Virus record (IMG/VR): IMGVR_UViG_2651869695_000012
DNA: 38,818 nucleotides
DNA from: a virus
Lineage: Duplodnaviria > Heunggongvirae > Uroviricota > Caudoviricetes
Strand: one strand, 5' to 3'
The translations under genes and the position numbers were made by a program. Below, piece by piece: positions 5,141 to 32,546 of the stretch. Positions within the stretch are counted from its first letter, which is position 1. Every line of letters begins with the position of its first letter. The notes under the pieces are model-generated. The model searched no databases, was not told the DNA's origin, and saw only the letters and a list, made by a program, of their open reading frames with translations.

Positions 5141-5781
5141 TTGTCGGTATACCTCTCTCGTTTGCTCAGTTGTTCAGGAATATGGTGCAGCAGCTCGCCG
5201 TCACCACAGTAAATGGCGGCATGATTCGGCACCGATGAACCAAAACAGCACAGCAGCACATCGCCCGGCTGCGCCGCTGACAACGGCACCTGATACAGCC
5301 CTGTGGCCTCCAGATTATCCAGATAGAGATTCTGACCGTTACGCCACCAGTCATCCTCGCGATGAAAATCCGGCATCTCAATCCCCGCCAGATGGTAAGC
5401 ATCCCGGAACAGCGTGTAACAGTCCGTCACCCCGTGCTCAAAGCGCCGCCCGGTAAGATGTGGCACACAGCGGAACTTGTAAATCGCCCCCCGGCAGACC
5501 AGCCACCACGGCAAATCACTCTGCACCTGCAGCCGCCGATCGGCCTCACTCAGCCAGGGCAGACCACCGGGGTGATTGTGGACCAGCGCCACAATCTCAC
5601 CCTGCATTTCTGCCTGCAGCCAGTCCTCCGGCGACATCCGGAAATACTCCTCCGGCTCACCGGAGATATTCACGCAGGGAAAATATCTTTCCCCCTCCGG
5701 CGTTCTCACCACGAAGCCGCACGACTCCGCTGGCGCACATCGCCGGGCGTGCGCCAGAATCGCTGATTCTGTCTCTGTCAT
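5038..5781 (-). CDS. K: Tail assembly protein K
   Basis: Start taken at the ATG at 5781 (MTETESAILAHARRCAPAESCGFVV...), matching lambda K from memory; the ORF track extends further upstream into L. Confidence 0.9.
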   Translation of the reverse strand: MTETESAILAHARRCAPAESCGFVVRTPEGERYFPCVNISGEPEEYFRMSPEDWLQAEMQGEIVALVHNHPGGLPWLSEADRRLQVQSDLPWWLVCRGAIYKFRCVPHLTGRRFEHGVTDCYTLFRDAYHLAGIEMPDFHREDDWWRNGQNLYLDNLEATGLYQVPLSAAQPGDVLLCCFGSSVPNHAAIYCGDGELLHHIPEQLSKRERYTDKWQRRTHSLWRHRAWHASAFTGIYNDLVAASTFV

Positions 5782-28511: not shown

Positions 28512-28732
28512 GCAGCACCTCCGAGATGCTTCATGTTTTTTCCGGAGCGAAAGGCTATAAGCGGCATACTGACGCGGTAATTACGGCCCAGCGGTTCACA
28601 AATCACCTTCTGACATTCACGGTCAACCAGGCTAACACGTAGAACATGCCCTGCAGGTGTGGTGTACCACTGACCCGGACGAGGACAACGGAAAGTCTGA
28701 TTGGTAAACCGTTTGAAAATATTCCGGATCAT
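28508..28732 (-). CDS. Small hypothetical phage protein
   Basis: 74-aa ORF with start overlapping the upstream stop (ATGA) and stop overlapping the replication gene start; no family recognised. Confidence 0.4.
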   Translation of the reverse strand: MIRNIFKRFTNQTFRCPRPGQWYTTPAGHVLRVSLVDRECQKVICEPLGRNYRVSMPLIAFRSGKNMKHLGGAA

Positions 28733-29889
28733 TTGCGCCCCCTTACCTCTGAAGGGTTCAGCGACAAATTTATGAGGCAGGCCAGCGCCGAAGCATCATT
28801 AATATAATCATATAAGCTAACAGCCAGCGGAGATTCAGCTTTTGCCAACATAGGATAAAGCTGCTGCAGCCAGACCTTGTGGATTACCGACAGGTGGGAG
28901 TAAAGCACGCTGGCGTTATCTGCGGCATCGCTCAGCGTGGATGGCTTTGAAAGCAGTTTTTCCATCTGGTTAAAGGCATTGATGTATGCCTCTTTGAACC
29001 GGGCAGCACGTTTACCCGTGAAACCCATAGCAAGAAACGCAAAACCGTCTCGTGTGATTTGATAGCAAGGGAGCTTGCGTGTACCACCGTTCGGTTGATT
29101 TACCGAAATCGATGTCTCCGCAAAATTGCGGGCACAAAACTCAGGGGAACAATCCAGAGTGCGGATCTTTTTCAGCACATCGTCGTGACGCTTGGAGAAG
29201 AAGTTGGCAACAGCCAAAGAAGTGGTAACGGCCTGGCCGTTGTCAATGGTGATTTCAGGTTGAGTGAGGGCTTGGATCGTAGCCATGATGGCAGCCTCCG
29301 TTGACAGTGAAAAACTTCCACCACCGGAAACGCCAATTTCACTGGTGGTGAACTGGACGGGGTTGGCGTAACCGGCGTCAACGGAGACCGGCGCACCTTT
29401 CGGTGCCCCCGCCCAGCCCACCATAATCTGGATGTGAGCAAATGCGGACGATAAAAAAGACGCTGGCGCGTCATACATCGCCGTTGACAATTTCAGGACG
29501 CCAATCCCGGCACCCGCTTTATAAGGTGCCTGAACAGTGTAACGTCCCGGAATTGCAGAATCAATATGCTGGTGGTCCTTCACACTCAACAAAATCACGC
29601 CTGAATTTCCACAAAGGACTAAAGCACTCATGCGGGTAGTCTTTGCGAAGATAGATAACGCGCTGTGTTTCTGGCTCCCAACGAATAACATGAACATAAA
29701 GTCCTCTTCCGTCACGAAACCAGCGGTTAAGTTCCTGCACAACTCGCCCCCCACAGTCAGGTAAAGTTCTCTGTGGTTACTTACAGCCAGGTGATTTGGT
29801 AATCTGCATTCATGCCGTAACAACAGGTGTGCAGCGACACTGACCACCAGCTGTTGCGACAAACGGTTATTTGCCGTTAAACTGTTCAT
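28729..29889 (-). CDS. Protein with C-terminal Rha-like phage regulatory domain; possible internal start at 29286
   Basis: 386-aa ORF whose ATG at 29889 overlaps the CII-like stop (ATGA); C-terminal half carries a Rha-like segment (VTTSLAVANFFSKRHDDVLKKIRTLD); strong GGAGG RBS precedes internal ATG 29286. Confidence 0.5.
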   Translation of the reverse strand: MNSLTANNRLSQQLVVSVAAHLLLRHECRLPNHLAVSNHRELYLTVGGELCRNLTAGFVTEEDFMFMLFVGSQKHSALSIFAKTTRMSALVLCGNSGVILLSVKDHQHIDSAIPGRYTVQAPYKAGAGIGVLKLSTAMYDAPASFLSSAFAHIQIMVGWAGAPKGAPVSVDAGYANPVQFTTSEIGVSGGGSFSLSTEAAIMATIQALTQPEITIDNGQAVTTSLAVANFFSKRHDDVLKKIRTLDCSPEFCARNFAETSISVNQPNGGTRKLPCYQITRDGFAFLAMGFTGKRAARFKEAYINAFNQMEKLLSKPSTLSDAADNASVLYSHLSVIHKVWLQQLYPMLAKAESPLAVSLYDYINDASALACLINLSLNPSEVRGRK

Positions 29890-30437
29890 GCGTTAGTTTC
29901 TCCACAGACACAAAACGCCACGACGCCCGGAGCTGCACACTCGCGGGCGTTACTCTTTTCTGGAGCGCAGAAGATTTTGTAGACCAGTGCTGCATGCTCC
30001 TGGAGCTTCGAAATTGACAGATACAACTCATCATTAATTGCTGTCTGCTCGTGTGGCTCCACTACCCCATCTTCGATTGCCGAACGAATCTGCTTTGAGT
30101 AACTCCCGATCTGTTCGATGACTTCCAGCAGGCGCTGGTTTATATCGGCGTTCTCTACTTCCTCAATTTCTGGAAGTGATACAAACACCCCACCAGCAGA
30201 CTGTGCGACAGCATCCGCAATGTGGTGAGTACCAGCCGCACGCTGTAAAACCATTGCCCATCCCAACGGAAAAAACTGATCGCCATCGGCACGAAGGCGG
30301 TTGAATAAAGCGTTCTCTGTTACATCCAGCCACTCAGCAGCTTCAGCGTAACCCCCCGGCAACACCGCGATAGTTTTTCTGACAGCTTTCACGTACCACT
30401 CAGGCTGTTTTTCCACTTTCCAGTGATGCTTACCCAC
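29886..30437 (-). CDS. CII-like regulatory protein (CP76-type)
   Basis: 183 aa, second gene of the cro-side operon, overlapping the cro stop; family assignment from memory of the CP76 pattern. Confidence 0.5.
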   Translation of the reverse strand: MGKHHWKVEKQPEWYVKAVRKTIAVLPGGYAEAAEWLDVTENALFNRLRADGDQFFPLGWAMVLQRAAGTHHIADAVAQSAGGVFVSLPEIEEVENADINQRLLEVIEQIGSYSKQIRSAIEDGVVEPHEQTAINDELYLSISKLQEHAALVYKIFCAPEKSNARECAAPGVVAFCVCGETNA

Positions 30438-30690
30438 GGCTTACCTCCTGTTCCTGTGGTTTTAACTCATTCCGGTTTTGACTAGATTGAAAGCGTGCAG
30501 GATAGAGAATCTGCATTTCGCTGATTTCTCCCTTAAAAAAATTGGCCAGACGTTCTGCAAGCTCGATAGATGGAATTTGTTCCAGTCTTTCAATACGACT
30601 CAGCGTCGCTGGATTGACCTGAACGCCCGCAGCAACATGCTGCAAAGTAAATCCGTGCGCCTTACGCACATTCCGTAATGGTGATTGCAT
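30430..30690 (-). CDS. Cro-like HTH (XRE family) repressor
   Basis: 86 aa; HTH LQHVAAGVQVNPATLSRIE; GGAGG RBS; divergent from the CI-like gene across an operator-rich spacer. Confidence 0.8.
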   Translation of the reverse strand: MQSPLRNVRKAHGFTLQHVAAGVQVNPATLSRIERLEQIPSIELAERLANFFKGEISEMQILYPARFQSSQNRNELKPQEQEVSRG

Positions 30691-30787
30691 ATAACCTCCA
30701 CATATTGCGTGATGAGCATATTATTTCACGCAAATATTTTGCGCAAGTTGATTTGCTTAACGCGCAATAAAGAAATGTAATAAACGC
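30691..30787. promoter_or_regulatory. Immunity switch region: divergent promoters and operators between cro-like and CI-like genes
   Basis: 97-bp spacer with dyads: TTGCGTGA (30705-30712) / TCACGCAA (30726-30733), palindromic TTGCGCAA (30739-30746), and TTGC-N7-GCAA site TTGCTTAACGCGCAA (30753-30767). Confidence 0.65.
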
Positions 30788-31480
30788 ATGAACATAGGAA
30801 ATCGAGTCAGACAACTTCGCCAGGCGAAGAACATGAAAATCGCCGATCTCGCTGAAGCAATAGGAGTGGATGCGGCGAATATCTCGCGCCTCGAAACAGG
30901 TAAGCAGAAACAATTCACTGAACAAGCCCTGAGTAATATTGCCAGGAGCTTAGGTGTTGATATTGCTGATCTCTTTACCTCAGACCTCAAAAGTAATACT
31001 GTATGTAAAAACAGTATTAGTGAGGATGTTGCGCAGGTGAAGGATGTATTCCGTATTGAAATGCTGGATGTCAGTGCCAGTGCGGGAAATGGCCTTATCC
31101 AGGGCGGTGATGTCATTGATGTGATTCATGCCATTGAATACAGAACTGATAATGCTGTATCGATGTTTGGTGGACGACCAGCAAATCACATTAAAGTTAT
31201 CAACGTTCGTGGGGACAGTATGTGTCCAACCATTGAGCCAGGAGATCTCATCTTCGTTGATATCAGTATCAATCAGTTTGATGGGGATGGTATATATGTA
31301 TTTGGTTTTGATGATAAAATTTACGTCAAACGACTGCAAATGATACCTGATAAACTGCTGGTAATTTCTGATAATCAGATTTACCGCGAATGGGGAATTA
31401 CCAGCGAAAACGAACATCGGTTTATGGTCTTTGGAAAGGTCTTAATCAGTCAGTCACAAACCCTTAAGCGACACAATTAA
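30788..31480 (+). CDS. CI-like repressor: N-terminal XRE HTH plus C-terminal S24 (LexA-like) autopeptidase
   Basis: 230 aa; HTH VRQLRQAKNMKIADLAEAIGVDAANISRLE; Ala-Gly cleavage site (SASAGNG); Ser nucleophile in GDSM and Lys in VKRL. Confidence 0.9.
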   Translation: MNIGNRVRQLRQAKNMKIADLAEAIGVDAANISRLETGKQKQFTEQALSNIARSLGVDIADLFTSDLKSNTVCKNSISEDVAQVKDVFRIEMLDVSASAGNGLIQGGDVIDVIHAIEYRTDNAVSMFGGRPANHIKVINVRGDSMCPTIEPGDLIFVDISINQFDGDGIYVFGFDDKIYVKRLQMIPDKLLVISDNQIYREWGITSENEHRFMVFGKVLISQSQTLKRHN

Positions 31481-31501
31481 CCCCCTACCTCAACATCAAT
31501 T

Positions 31502-31526
31502 AGCCACCAGAAGGTGGCTTTTCATT
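31502..31526 (+). terminator. Intrinsic terminator after the CI-like gene
   Basis: AGCCACC-AGAA-GGTGGCT followed by TTTCATT, read directly. Confidence 0.6.
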
Positions 31527-31536
31527 ACCCACCAAA

Positions 31537-31575
31537 TTGCATATCTCGCAATAAAAACACTTGCATAATGCGCAA
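31537..31575. promoter_or_regulatory. Candidate OL/PL: two TTGC-N7-GCAA operator-like sites with an overlapping promoter-like hexamer
   Basis: TTGCATATCTCGCAA (31537-31551) and TTGCATAATGCGCAA (31561-31575) share the form of the 30753-30767 site; TTGCAT resembles a -35 hexamer, with TATCTT 17 nt downstream. Confidence 0.35.
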
Positions 31576-31989
31576 CTTCATTTTATCTTTCTTTCCAGAC
31601 CTACAAACAAGGTACTAACAAAATTTGGTTGTAACACGGCGTATGGCACATGCGTCGTTAGCGGTCTGGGGACGTTAAAGGGGACAATCCACTCCTTGCT
31701 CGGGCAAACAAACCAGGTAGCCGGAATGTGCAAGTCAATGAGGATGCTGATAAGACGCCTAACCAGCGTGGCGATTCGGTTTGACGCCTGGGAAGAGACC
31801 AGGGTGCAACGATGAGGGCATTTATGGAACCGCGACAAAGTGTGGTGCCGTAACTGGCTAAGTGCTCTCAGCGTTGTGGTAATCCGCGAAATGGCGCGGC
31901 GGTAAGTATGGCGGGGTTATTCCTTCCCCGTTGAGGACACCGGGTTGTCAGGTTGACCATACGCTTAAGTGACAAGCCCACCACAACAG

Positions 31990-32046
31990 CCACTGCTTTG
32001 GCGGTACCAGTTTGTACACTTGCTTCCGGCTGGTACCGCTCTTTTT
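31990..32046 (+). ncRNA. Candidate DicF-like small RNA / terminator hairpin in the leader
   Basis: 10-bp perfect stem GCGGTACCAG / CTGGTACCGC (32001-32010 / 32030-32039) then TCTTTTT; the 5' part UUUGGCGGUACCAGUUUGUAC resembles E. coli DicF (UUUGGCGGUAUCAGUUUUAC) as recalled from memory. Confidence 0.35.
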
Positions 32047-32135
32047 ACAAAACAGAGAAGAGCATCACCGGACGACGGGCTCATAACCCAATCCACCCGG
32101 GCGGCTGCCACCGCAGGTGTTCTTCTCTGTTTTGT
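32047..32135 (+). other. Long perfect inverted repeat (14-bp stem around a ~61-nt interior); candidate RNase III processing site or attenuator
   Basis: ACAAAACAGAGAAG (32047-32060) is the exact reverse complement of CTTCTCTGTTTTGT (32122-32135); sits immediately before the RBS of the first downstream gene. Confidence 0.45.
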
Positions 32136-32183
32136 GGAGAAACCAACCGACCTTGCAGGGTCGATATGATGAGGAGCAGCAAA

Positions 32184-32546
32184 ATGGCTAGCGAACGCAG
32201 TACTGATGTGCAGGCATTTATCGGGGAGCTGGACGGCGGCGTATTTGAAACCAAAATCGGCGCTGTTCTCAGTGAAGTCGCTTCCGGTGTGATGAACACG
32301 AAAACCAAAGGTAAGGTCTCGCTCAACCTGGAAATCGAACCGTTTGATGAGAACCGTGTGAAAATCAAACACAAACTCTCATATGTTCGCCCGACTAACC
32401 GCGGGAAAATTTCTGAAGAAGACACCACCGAAACGCCGATGTATGTCAATCGCGGTGGTCGCCTGACTATTCTGCAGGAAGACCAGGGACAATTACTGAC
32501 TCTTGCCGGTGAACCTGACGGAAAACTTCGCGCAGCAGGTTATTAA
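32184..32546 (+). CDS. Hypothetical protein, first gene of the plus-strand accessory operon (possibly YfdP-like)
   Basis: ATG 32184 preceded by GAGGAG at 7 nt spacing; 120 aa; the longer ORF-track start at 31953 is not supported by any RBS. Confidence 0.55.
   Translation: MASERSTDVQAFIGELDGGVFETKIGAVLSEVASGVMNTKTKGKVSLNLEIEPFDENRVKIKHKLSYVRPTNRGKISEEDTTETPMYVNRGGRLTILQEDQGQLLTLAGEPDGKLRAAGY

Follow-up and report, generated by a model that had tools for sequence, protein, structure and literature searches.

DicF has so far been treated as a single, nearly invariant 53-nucleotide (nt) small RNA (sRNA) of defective prophages. For the Qin prophage of Escherichia coli K-12, a 190-nt species with a 5′ end made by RNase III, a 72-nt form with a 3′ end made by RNase III and the 53-nt form with a 5′ end made by RNase E have been described, and the published pairings are those of the 3′ part with ftsZ and pykA and of the 5′ end with xylR. 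A 2016 study found no DicF in phage genome databases, and in a 2025 review of phage sRNAs canonical DicF is the only one of its kind included. Another RNA, the 193-nt sRNA-17, was defined by 5′/3′ RACE (rapid amplification of cDNA ends) and Northern blotting in the mEp460-type prophage of E. coli K1 RS218; it rises in stationary phase, is lower with ArcA, and was reported as novel, with no Rfam homologue and its own ArcA-controlled promoter (Sun et al. 2020, PMC7719688). For phage P1, a ‘dicF-like region’ is marked at 68791-68892 in record AF234172, within the leader of the ban operon, which C1 controls. Here we analyse a 38,818-nt stretch of Caudoviricetes DNA (IMG/VR record IMGVR_UViG_2651869695_000012; ‘the window’), an E. 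coli lambdoid prophage of the SfV/SfII/mEp460/cdtI type, in which a first-pass annotation had pointed to positions 31527-32183 as a structured, non-coding leader with a DicF-like hairpin.

This region sits between the cI-like repressor gene and yfdP, the first gene of the ‘early-left’ operon, and probably comprises an operator/promoter and a ~590-nt untranslated leader of a repressor-controlled yfdP-yfdQ-yfdR... operon, built as a chain of exchangeable RNA modules. The likeliest mechanism is a terminator-attenuated, RNase III-processed leader that releases a ~173-nt sRNA. The modules would run from the O_L/P_L-type operators and promoter through a structured RNA that we call B1, a long hairpin, a ‘dicF-like’ 5′ domain (hereafter the block), a terminator hairpin in the position of DicF (the DicF slot) and a ~25-bp duplex to the yfdP ribosome-binding site (RBS; Table 1). 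What the analysis shows is homology and synteny with known loci, helices that all covary, their strandedness and a lack of coding.

The hairpin described in the first-pass annotation is present: GCGGTACCAG (32001-32010) pairs with CTGGTACCGC (32030-32039), extended by a G32000-U32040 wobble and followed by C and TTTTT up to position 32046. It has the form of an intrinsic terminator, a GC-rich stem and then a U-tract on the transcribed strand, and folds at -21.2 kcal/mol (z = -4.0). Its resemblance to DicF also stands, since the K-12 dicF locus and the window share TTTGGCGGTA[C/T]CAGTTT and CCGC[T/C]CTTTTTA (after the block, TTTGGCGGTAyCAGTTT and CCGCyCTTTTTA), although DicF nt 1-11, the loop and the 3′ arm differ. 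The resemblance goes beyond chance because the 104 nt at 31873-31976 are ~97% identical to the DNA immediately 5′ of dicF (K-12 Qin, L115:2755-2862), which falls inside the 190-nt DicF species, and because the hairpin follows the block without exception: in the block-anchored IMG/VR loci (n = 126), UUUGGCGG...CCGCC-CUUUUU is always found downstream. These loci contain 46 distinct downstream 125-mers and at least nine clearly different slot alleles, all with UUUGGCGG...CCGCCCUUUUU; the commonest allele is canonical DicF itself, and that of the window occurs in 6 of the 126. By synteny the hairpin therefore corresponds to DicF in position, within the same kind of early operon on the repressor side, which supports the earlier interpretation to that extent. 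Across 26 alleles, the slot hairpin is 83% paired, compared with 72% in shuffles (0/500) and 30-50% when the strands are slid, with 37 double-change cells against 14 expected and five nearly invariant basal base pairs. A boxA/nut reading of CGCUCUUUUUACAA was rejected, given that other alleles read GCCCUUUUUAAAG or GCAAUUUUUUACA and that there is no N-like gene.

The block upstream of the slot is shared with both Qin and P1. It is to the block that the P1 ‘dicF-like region’ aligns, rather than to the 53-nt DicF, and it too has a terminator hairpin of its own after it. In 13 variants the block folds into a closing helix, two hairpins and the interleaved helices GUAUGG/CCAUAC and GGGUUGUCA/UGACAACCC; the fold is 92% paired versus 33-53% when slid, and eight pairs have changed on both sides against 3.7 expected (4/500). 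On this fold, the block probably contains a pseudoknot. As a side observation, GUUG at the predicted sRNA 5′ end (31873-31876) can pair either with CAAC at 31807-31810 in the base of the long hairpin or with CAAC at 31984-31987 in the closing helix of the block; only one of the two pairings can exist at a time, and RNase III cleavage could bring about a switch between them.

Table 1 Features of the leader and its neighbours in the window (positions are those of the whole stretch).
Feature	Position	Strand	Basis or remarks
Cro-like gene	30430-30690	-	CII-like gene also runs leftward
cI-like repressor gene (helix-turn-helix and S24-peptidase domains)	30788-31480	+	Runs rightward
Terminator hairpin of the cI-like gene, AGCCACC-AGAA-GGTGGCT	31502-31519	+	Terminator scan; homologous SfII site annotated as rho-independent terminator
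Operator-like 15-mers, TTGC-N7-GCAA	31537-31551 and 31561-31575		Repeat search
Putative P_L-type early promoter	31561-31589	+	-35 TTGCAT at 31561-31566, 17-nt spacer, -10 TATCTT at 31584-31589
Module B1, structured RNA with five helices and a possible pseudoknot	31623-31803	+	Homologues and covariation
Long hairpin, conserved base CAACGAUGAGgGC / GCuCUCAGCGUUG, variable apex	31807-31876	+	Probable RNase III site
‘dicF-like’ block, DicF-precursor 5′ domain	31873-31987	+	Closed by GUUGUGGU/ACCACAAC; two interleaved helices
Predicted ~173-nt processed sRNA	31873-32045	+	Homology of both ends with sRNA-17 (RACE) and the long DicF species
DicF-slot hairpin and U-tract	32000-32046	+	Probable intrinsic terminator and predicted sRNA 3′ end; fold and covariation
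~25-bp duplex enclosing a three-way junction	32042-32140	+	Probable RNase III site and yfdP leader element
Small variable hairpin (32148-32163), Shine-Dalgarno (SD) sequence GAGGAG (32172-32177) and yfdP start codon (32184)	32148-32186	+	
yfdP	32184-32546	+	Same strand as the repressor gene; open reading frame list; RefSeq annotation is yfdP

Membership of the DicF family in the sense of the Rfam model (RF00039) did not hold. No match to this model was found at E<=10 in 31400-32300 (901 nt), and the window is not matched at the gathering threshold; run on 86 nt only, the model gives 12.2 bits (E = 1.4) where 48 are required, with model positions 12-52 aligned in register. Six other slot alleles fall short of the model as well, whereas canonical DicF copies reach 76.7-77 bits. 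In an alignment with the dicF locus, the window lacks DicF nt 1-11, the 5′ single-stranded segment (seed) UUUCUGGUGAC and the A/U-rich single-stranded stretch in which RNase E cuts DicF; UUUCUGGUGAC is the RNase E-generated DicF 5′ end, which pairs with xylR (PMC5069750). Hence, a true DicF, which would act in trans to stop translation of ftsZ and make cells filament when the prophage is induced, is very unlikely here, although the genomic slot, the 5′ domain and the hairpin base are shared and the model aligns in register. The loop and 3′ arm that pair with ftsZ in DicF differ in the window, and the ftsZ tests point the same way. In a windowed duplex test, the known site of DicF on ftsZ is found again (-22.9 kcal/mol at -32 to -7), whereas the window allele stays within the range of shuffles (25/40), with a site off the RBS; the power of the test is low, with true DicF itself at 6/40. 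The longest Watson-Crick run between the window allele and ftsZ (-100 to +60) is 7 nt, at -73, far from the RBS. Full-length RNAduplex predictions were dropped because of unrealistically large loops, and the windowed and exact-run tests were used instead. No ftsZ effect appears among the up-regulated genes tabulated in the sRNA-17 study (PMC7719688). Given the lack of ftsZ complementarity, no filamentation phenotype is expected.

Searches for targets of the window allele in its own phage returned only 10-11-mers, at about chance level (~4 expected for 10-mers). A different allele, a6 (L137), carries an 11-nt perfect complement to the ftsZ SD region GGAGAGAAACU in its loop AGUUUCUCUCC; judged from this complementarity, targeting of ftsZ by a6 may be convergent with that by DicF, through a different sequence. 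The a6 allele comes from IMG/VR contig 3300036778_000215, where the slot hairpin lies ~90 nt downstream of the block motif at 5672-5693 on the minus strand. The earlier suggestion of a ‘DicF-family sRNA or attenuator/processing module’ is thus largely right about the kind of element, as indicated by the slot, the architecture and sRNA-17, and wrong about DicF as defined by model, seed and target.

sRNA-17 provides a measured counterpart of this RNA. Rebuilt from mEp460, it runs from GTTGTGGTGAATG... to ...CTGGTACCGCTCTTTT with the 5′ end GUUGUGG; its last ~70 nt are identical to window positions 31978-32045, whole hairpin and U-tract included, and the Northern probe and RACE primers of PMC7719688 place it in the yfdP sense. 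The two RNAs agree in prophage type, position upstream of yfdP, 5′ end, 3′ hairpin/terminator and strand, but the central ~110 nt of sRNA-17 are unrelated to the block of the window, which is of the Qin/P1 type. On this comparison, the window RNA would be a natural chimera of a DicF-precursor 5′ domain and the sRNA-17 hairpin. The quantitative reverse-transcription PCR amplicon of PMC7719688 spans B1 into the sRNA, which means that B1 is co-transcribed and that sRNA-17 probably owes its 5′ end to processing. What was reported as ArcA control of a dedicated sRNA promoter may hence be control of the early-left transcript as a whole. The ‘promoter’ fragment used for electrophoretic mobility shift assays in that study corresponds to transcribed B1 and long hairpin (window 31623-31868; Table S2). 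Deletion of sRNA-17 raised yfdP by log2 6.6 (~95-fold), and yfdR was also up (PMC7719688), a rise of yfdP that fits the loss of an attenuator. The kinship of sRNA-17 with DicF is not remarked on in PMC7719688.

The slot is followed by a long-range stem, noted before as 14 bp, which is real and longer: about 25 pairs, beginning in the U-tract of the slot hairpin (z = -5.5 to -6.7). In 21 sequences from ~10 genera it is 97.8% paired versus 91.5% in shuffles (0/500) and 43-62% when slid, and double changes are seen at 13 pairs where 4.1 are expected (0/500). In 18-19 of the 21 sequences, three positions of the U-tract form U-G pairs, which are available on the plus strand only; hence the duplex is a plus-strand RNA helix, one that can form only on read-through transcripts. 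Inside it, the three-way junction holds a near-invariant loop, GCUCAUAACCCAAUC (32079-32093). Although predicted to be unpaired, this loop hardly varies between E. coli, Kosakonia and Mangrovibacter, and it may bind protein or RNA. Between the duplex and the yfdP SD sequence, the small hairpin differs between genera yet stays paired (CGACC/GGUCG, GGCGG/CCGCC or GGCUG/CAGCC, by eye). On the other side of the sRNA, the long hairpin (z = -2.4) keeps its base and varies in its apical insert among the B1-anchored loci.

Qin has duplexes in the corresponding places. Counting 190 nt back from the dicF 3′ end (L115:2935) leads to ~L115:2746, a position given by RNA length rather than by a mapped site, in the 3′ strand of a ~22-bp hairpin before the block; this hairpin is homologous to window 31807-31876, and the GUUGUGG of sRNA-17 lies at its foot. 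The end of the 72-nt form, at ~L115:2954, falls in the 5′ arm of a ~28-bp duplex (z = -4.4) that reaches from within the U-tract of DicF almost to the SD sequence of dicB; the window duplex at 32042-32140 is, on this comparison, its analogue. Both the window duplex and the long hairpin have the form of an RNase III substrate, a near-perfect duplex of at least 20 bp (~two turns). The long duplexes on either side thus resemble those of the RNase III-cut DicF precursor, which favours the earlier interpretation, and by analogy with Qin, RNase III cleavage is probable at both window sites. The resulting 173-nt RNA is predicted to be the window counterpart of the 190-nt DicF and the 193-nt sRNA-17.

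The absence of coding, already noted for these ~650 nt, was borne out. Between the end of the cI-like gene and the yfdP ATG, open reading frames (ORFs; 31520 to 32183) have TTG or GTG starts only and are not conserved, and in most other genera the yfdP frame, extended upstream from its ATG, is closed after 1-13 codons. Of the 28 B1 representatives, at most 9 are free of stops in any one frame, and the lengths of B1 fall into every residue class modulo 3. An antisense ORF (31965-32372, minus strand) matches phrog_3651 (E = 5.5e-87), and a plus-strand ORF (31969-32166) matches phrog_33599; together these ORFs span the yfdP leader and the antisense strand of yfdP. These matches, along with two minus-strand ORFs annotated here in mEp460, would favour small proteins encoded in the region, as annotated in mEp460 and other phages and including PHROG 3651 on the minus strand. 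We give this reading next to no credence: PHROG 3651 and 33599 have no known function and are probably spurious families, produced when automatic annotation calls ORFs again and again on near-identical DNA, the antisense ORF is shortened to 54-96 amino acids in most other genera, the yfdP extension is closed, B1 has no conserved frame and its indels are not frame-preserving, and substitutions follow base-pairing rather than codon patterns.

The whole region folds better than shuffled sequences on both strands (z = -3.7 on the plus and -2.9 on the minus strand). These scores decide nothing alone, and the case hence rests on the comparative data. A DNA-level element (origin, pac site or binding-site array) was rejected, given that the invariant plus-strand U-G pairs would be A-C mismatches on the other strand.

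Part of the earlier view was that of a single leader. The ~650 nt are in fact a mosaic, in which at least four RNA modules are each conserved on their own. BLAST against phages and 114 fetched loci splits it into pieces that occur independently, namely the operators and promoter, B1 (~31623-31803), the long hairpin (31807-31876), the ~115-nt block (31873-31987), the slot hairpin and a yfdP-proximal element (31998-32184). The last travels with yfdP through Mangrovibacter, Enterobacter, Kosakonia, Phytobacter, Leclercia, Superficieibacter, Scandinavium and Pseudocitrobacter, and occurs in reduced form in Providencia. In Phytobacter ursingii (L019:2222-2300 and L024:1186-1264), a tRNA-Ile gene (anticodon AAU) occupies the position of the block, directly upstream of a slot hairpin and a yfdP-type long stem, which indicates that tRNA genes and structured RNA modules are interchangeable in the leader. 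A recurrent non-coding segment after B1 (L019, L265, L266, L303 and L325), AUCAGCCAUUCACGYUAAGCAUC...GGGACUGGAAGAGUUACCACUUGGAGACGGUCC..., may be a further RNA module. Sequence of yfdP-type enterobacterial prophages was also found in assemblies named Fredinandcohnia humi, Martelella alba and Chryseobacterium sp. (L014, L017/L018 and L023), probably as contamination.

Taken together with the published homologues (the 193-nt and 190-nt RNAs, their RNase III and RNase E dependence and the rise of yfdP on deletion), these observations suggest the following course of events, for which we infer the position of the promoter, the cleavage sites in this phage, any trans target and how efficiently the terminator works. 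Once the operators are free of repressor, transcription would start at a putative site at ~31596, placed from the sequence by eye. Most polymerases would stop at the slot hairpin (32000-32046), keeping yfdP and the later genes low by attenuation; by analogy with its homologues, the hairpin probably terminates transcription in vivo and lowers yfdP. RNase III would cut at the base of the long hairpin to give the 5′ end G31873 and the ~173-nt sRNA, freeing B1 as a 5′ fragment. On transcripts that read through, the U-tract would pair into the 32042-32140 duplex, where an RNase III cut would separate the sRNA from the yfdP mRNA. The released sRNA may then act in trans, on a target other than ftsZ.

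A purely cis-acting leader, in which a terminator and processing or stability signals do all the work, the released RNAs are by-products and the alleles drift neutrally under a pairing constraint, overlaps with the model above. As expected of a terminator, the loop and upper stem vary freely while the GC-rich base and U-tract are fixed; no target was found for the window allele in ftsZ or its own phage; and the strongest effects of deleting sRNA-17 fall on the adjacent yfdP and yfdR. However, canonical DicF in the same slot has proven trans targets, the 11-nt ftsZ complement of a6 in a different loop suggests selection on loop content, and the ~97% conservation of the 5′ block between Qin and this phage is far above what a spacer would need. 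We regard a purely cis-acting role as rather unlikely.

Several points weigh against a processed, attenuated leader that releases an sRNA. The candidate P_L-type promoter lies below the threshold of the promoter scan, and the terminator scan missed the slot hairpin, the 19-nt loop of which is longer than that of typical terminators. Covariation in the block is moderate, since the sample comprises no more than 13 variants of shallow divergence. With the other middle module found in mEp460 and RS218, sRNA-17 is the same RNA only in part, and the rise of yfdP in the deletion strain could be explained by read-through from the chloramphenicol-resistance cassette that replaced sRNA-17. The RNase III sites of the window are placed by analogy and RNA length rather than by mapping, and the transcript evidence is from the homologues sRNA-17 and DicF. 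Lastly, the searches of ftsZ and of the phage itself yielded no trans target to propose for the window RNA.

B1 is a strongly covarying RNA, and the best supported and most novel of the two unannotated modules. Its homologues (72-88% identity) lie in unannotated intergenic DNA: in P1 (between trnI and ban), P7, D6, SJ46 and RCS47, in epsilon15/phiV10-like podoviruses (TL-2011b, O157 typing phages and SPN1S), in Enterobacter and Klebsiella phages, and in Kosakonia and Phytobacter prophages. Lambdoid phages carry homologues too. An exact-motif scan of IMG/VR returned 123 unique copies in 49 clusters at 93% identity, from which 28 representatives were used. In these, the five helices are 92.6% paired versus 79.4% in shuffles (0/500) and 32-44% with the partners slid, and double changes affect 15 pairs and 89 cells against 10 and 26 expected. 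The motifs GGUAGCCGGAAUGUGCAAG (31716-31734), GGCGAU.CGGU.UGAC and GGAAGAG are invariant, as are U-G pairs on the plus strand. In a possible pseudoknot, the UCACCA loop and GGUGUGA are 98% paired; a single pair covaries (C-G in 26 representatives and A-U in 2, the window copy among the latter), which is essentially one event. A long-range GCACAU/AUGUGC helix predicted by RNAalifold was set aside: it consists of invariant columns only, which give no evidence either way, and a local 5′ hairpin covaries instead. A likeness of B1 and the block to tRNA was also rejected, with ARAGORN and the Rfam tRNA model both negative.

Of 5,426 complete E. coli genomes, 1,833 (34%) carry B1, 554 plasmid copies included, and it is annotated in none of the E. 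coli records listed. For both B1 and the block, Rfam 15 gave no covariance-model match at E<=10 in 31400-32300 (901 nt) except for a chance match to the hairpin ribozyme (E = 1.5), and a sequence search of the literature for B1 found no match. Of 103 distinct B1 cores, 16 have the block after them, 13 have a tRNA(CAU) before them and 20 have a tRNA-Arg(UCU) after them, the last on the same strand and within 400 nt. In TL-2011b, B1 and its tRNA (L003:2742-2815) lie on the strand opposite their protein-coding neighbours, which suggests that the pair is a stand-alone transcription unit. B1 may have a biochemical function of its own, such as protein binding, molecular mimicry or catalysis.

A joint claim covering B1 and the slot is tentative, somewhat short of evenly balanced: B1 would be an undescribed ~170-nt RNA class, and the dicF slot a swappable sRNA cassette. 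B1 may be carried widely by temperate Enterobacterales phages, often arrayed with rare-codon tRNA genes. The slot may combine a constant, probably pseudoknotted 5′ domain and a constant terminator base that frame a variable targeting loop, so that different prophages may deploy different sRNAs from one scaffold. On this reading, the ftsZ RBS would be reached by canonical DicF and by a6 with different sequences, and the window allele (sRNA-17 type) would be aimed elsewhere.

B1, the block or both could instead be cis-acting processive antitermination RNAs of the HK022 put or Bacillus EAR type, driving read-through of the slot and later terminators. In favour of this, the block in Qin, P1 and the window comes soon after an early promoter under repressor control and directly before an intrinsic terminator, the folds of both modules would accommodate a pseudoknot, and the interval from cI to yfdP holds no N-like gene. 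The likeness to HK022 put is one of position only (a structured RNA after the early promoter and before terminators), whereas size and fold differ and there is no detectable similarity: the HK022 early region gave only chance blastn matches (E >= 2.8) and no nhmmer match at E<=10. In TL-2011b, with B1 and the tRNA opposite the protein-coding neighbours, there is no downstream operon, and transcripts do end at the DicF and sRNA-17 hairpins. Antitermination is thus an improbable role, and we retain attenuation and processing.

The operators and promoter fit the prophage setting. The two operator-like 15-mers are spaced 24 bp apart, the same motif recurs at 30753-30767 in the cro-cI gap, and from the sequence they are likely an O_L-type operator pair. 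The putative P_L-type promoter was read by eye; its -35/-10 pair (TTGCAT/TATCTT) overlaps the second operator, and it is supported by this overlap and by the analogous dicBp and Pban promoters, the layout being like that of the repressor-controlled dicBp beside dicA in Qin and the C1-controlled Pban in P1. The 704 nt around the feature are 100% identical to O111 and related strains and 88-98% identical to PhiR47_1, mEp460, cdtI, 2H10, Ayreon and Stx2c phages. Around the region lie genes for the cI-like S24 repressor, Cro, a CII-like protein and a Rha/Ash protein, and yfdP is followed on the same strand by yfdQ (DUF2303), a yfdR-like gene and genes for DUF551 proteins. Elsewhere in the window, on the minus strand at 29341-29529, a tandem of the Rfam C4 antisense RNA (81.4 bits) and isrK (62.2 bits) lies inside or just upstream of a Rha/Ash-type antirepressor gene (28729-29889), an arrangement that amounts to P1/P7 immI-like RNA control of an antirepressor in a lambdoid prophage; the pair is seen again in two other loci (L153 and L173).

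What has been published before is the hairpin allele, as part of sRNA-17 and unconnected to DicF. New are the family relationship between sRNA-17 and DicF, the series of alleles in a fixed scaffold, the shared RNase III-type architecture and the two unannotated RNA modules. DicF is then one allele of a wider modular family in functional temperate phages (mEp460, cdtI, SfII, Stx2c phages and P1), a family that is joined by sRNA-17, reported as virulence-associated in meningitis E. coli. The sRNA-17 study merits re-reading, given that its strongest deletion effects are on adjacent genes and that its ‘promoter’ fragment is transcribed RNA. The Rfam DicF model covers the canonical allele only, the other slot alleles tested all falling below its threshold. 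B1, with well-supported covariation, and the block, with moderate covariation, are very common in E. coli genomes yet unannotated; they are candidates for new RNA families and useful for work on the processing of phage early transcripts.

RNase III processing stems are known in phage early transcripts, in the lambda N leader and the T7 early region. Like these, the window has a long near-perfect duplex between an upstream RNA and the RBS of the next gene; unlike them, and with no sequence relationship to them, its 5′ arm begins in a terminator U-tract and it encloses a conserved three-way junction, the loop of which is near-invariant. The P1 ban leader is closer: it has a block homologous to 31873-31987 with compensatory changes in three helices, a repressor-controlled promoter upstream and a terminator hairpin of its own downstream, and P1 carries a B1 copy as well. 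However, in P1 the block and B1 are 2 kb apart with tRNA genes and tciABC between them, and the slot hairpin GCCCAUCUUCGGGUGGGC is without the GGCGG base. Compared with the 53-nt DicF core, the window hairpin has a perfect stem and a different loop and 3′ arm; it shares with DicF the repressor-side early operon, the place directly 3′ of the precursor domain and 5′ of a long duplex, and a terminator-like form with a GGCGG/CCGCC base and U-tract, the first pair in the window being G-U. The Qin dicBF leader differs in having the ydfABC ORFs upstream, where the window has non-coding B1, and dicB rather than yfdP downstream, but the order is the same in both: repressor gene, same-strand early promoter, long hairpin, ~110-nt domain, GGCGG/CCGCC hairpin with U-tract, ~25-bp duplex and first ORF.

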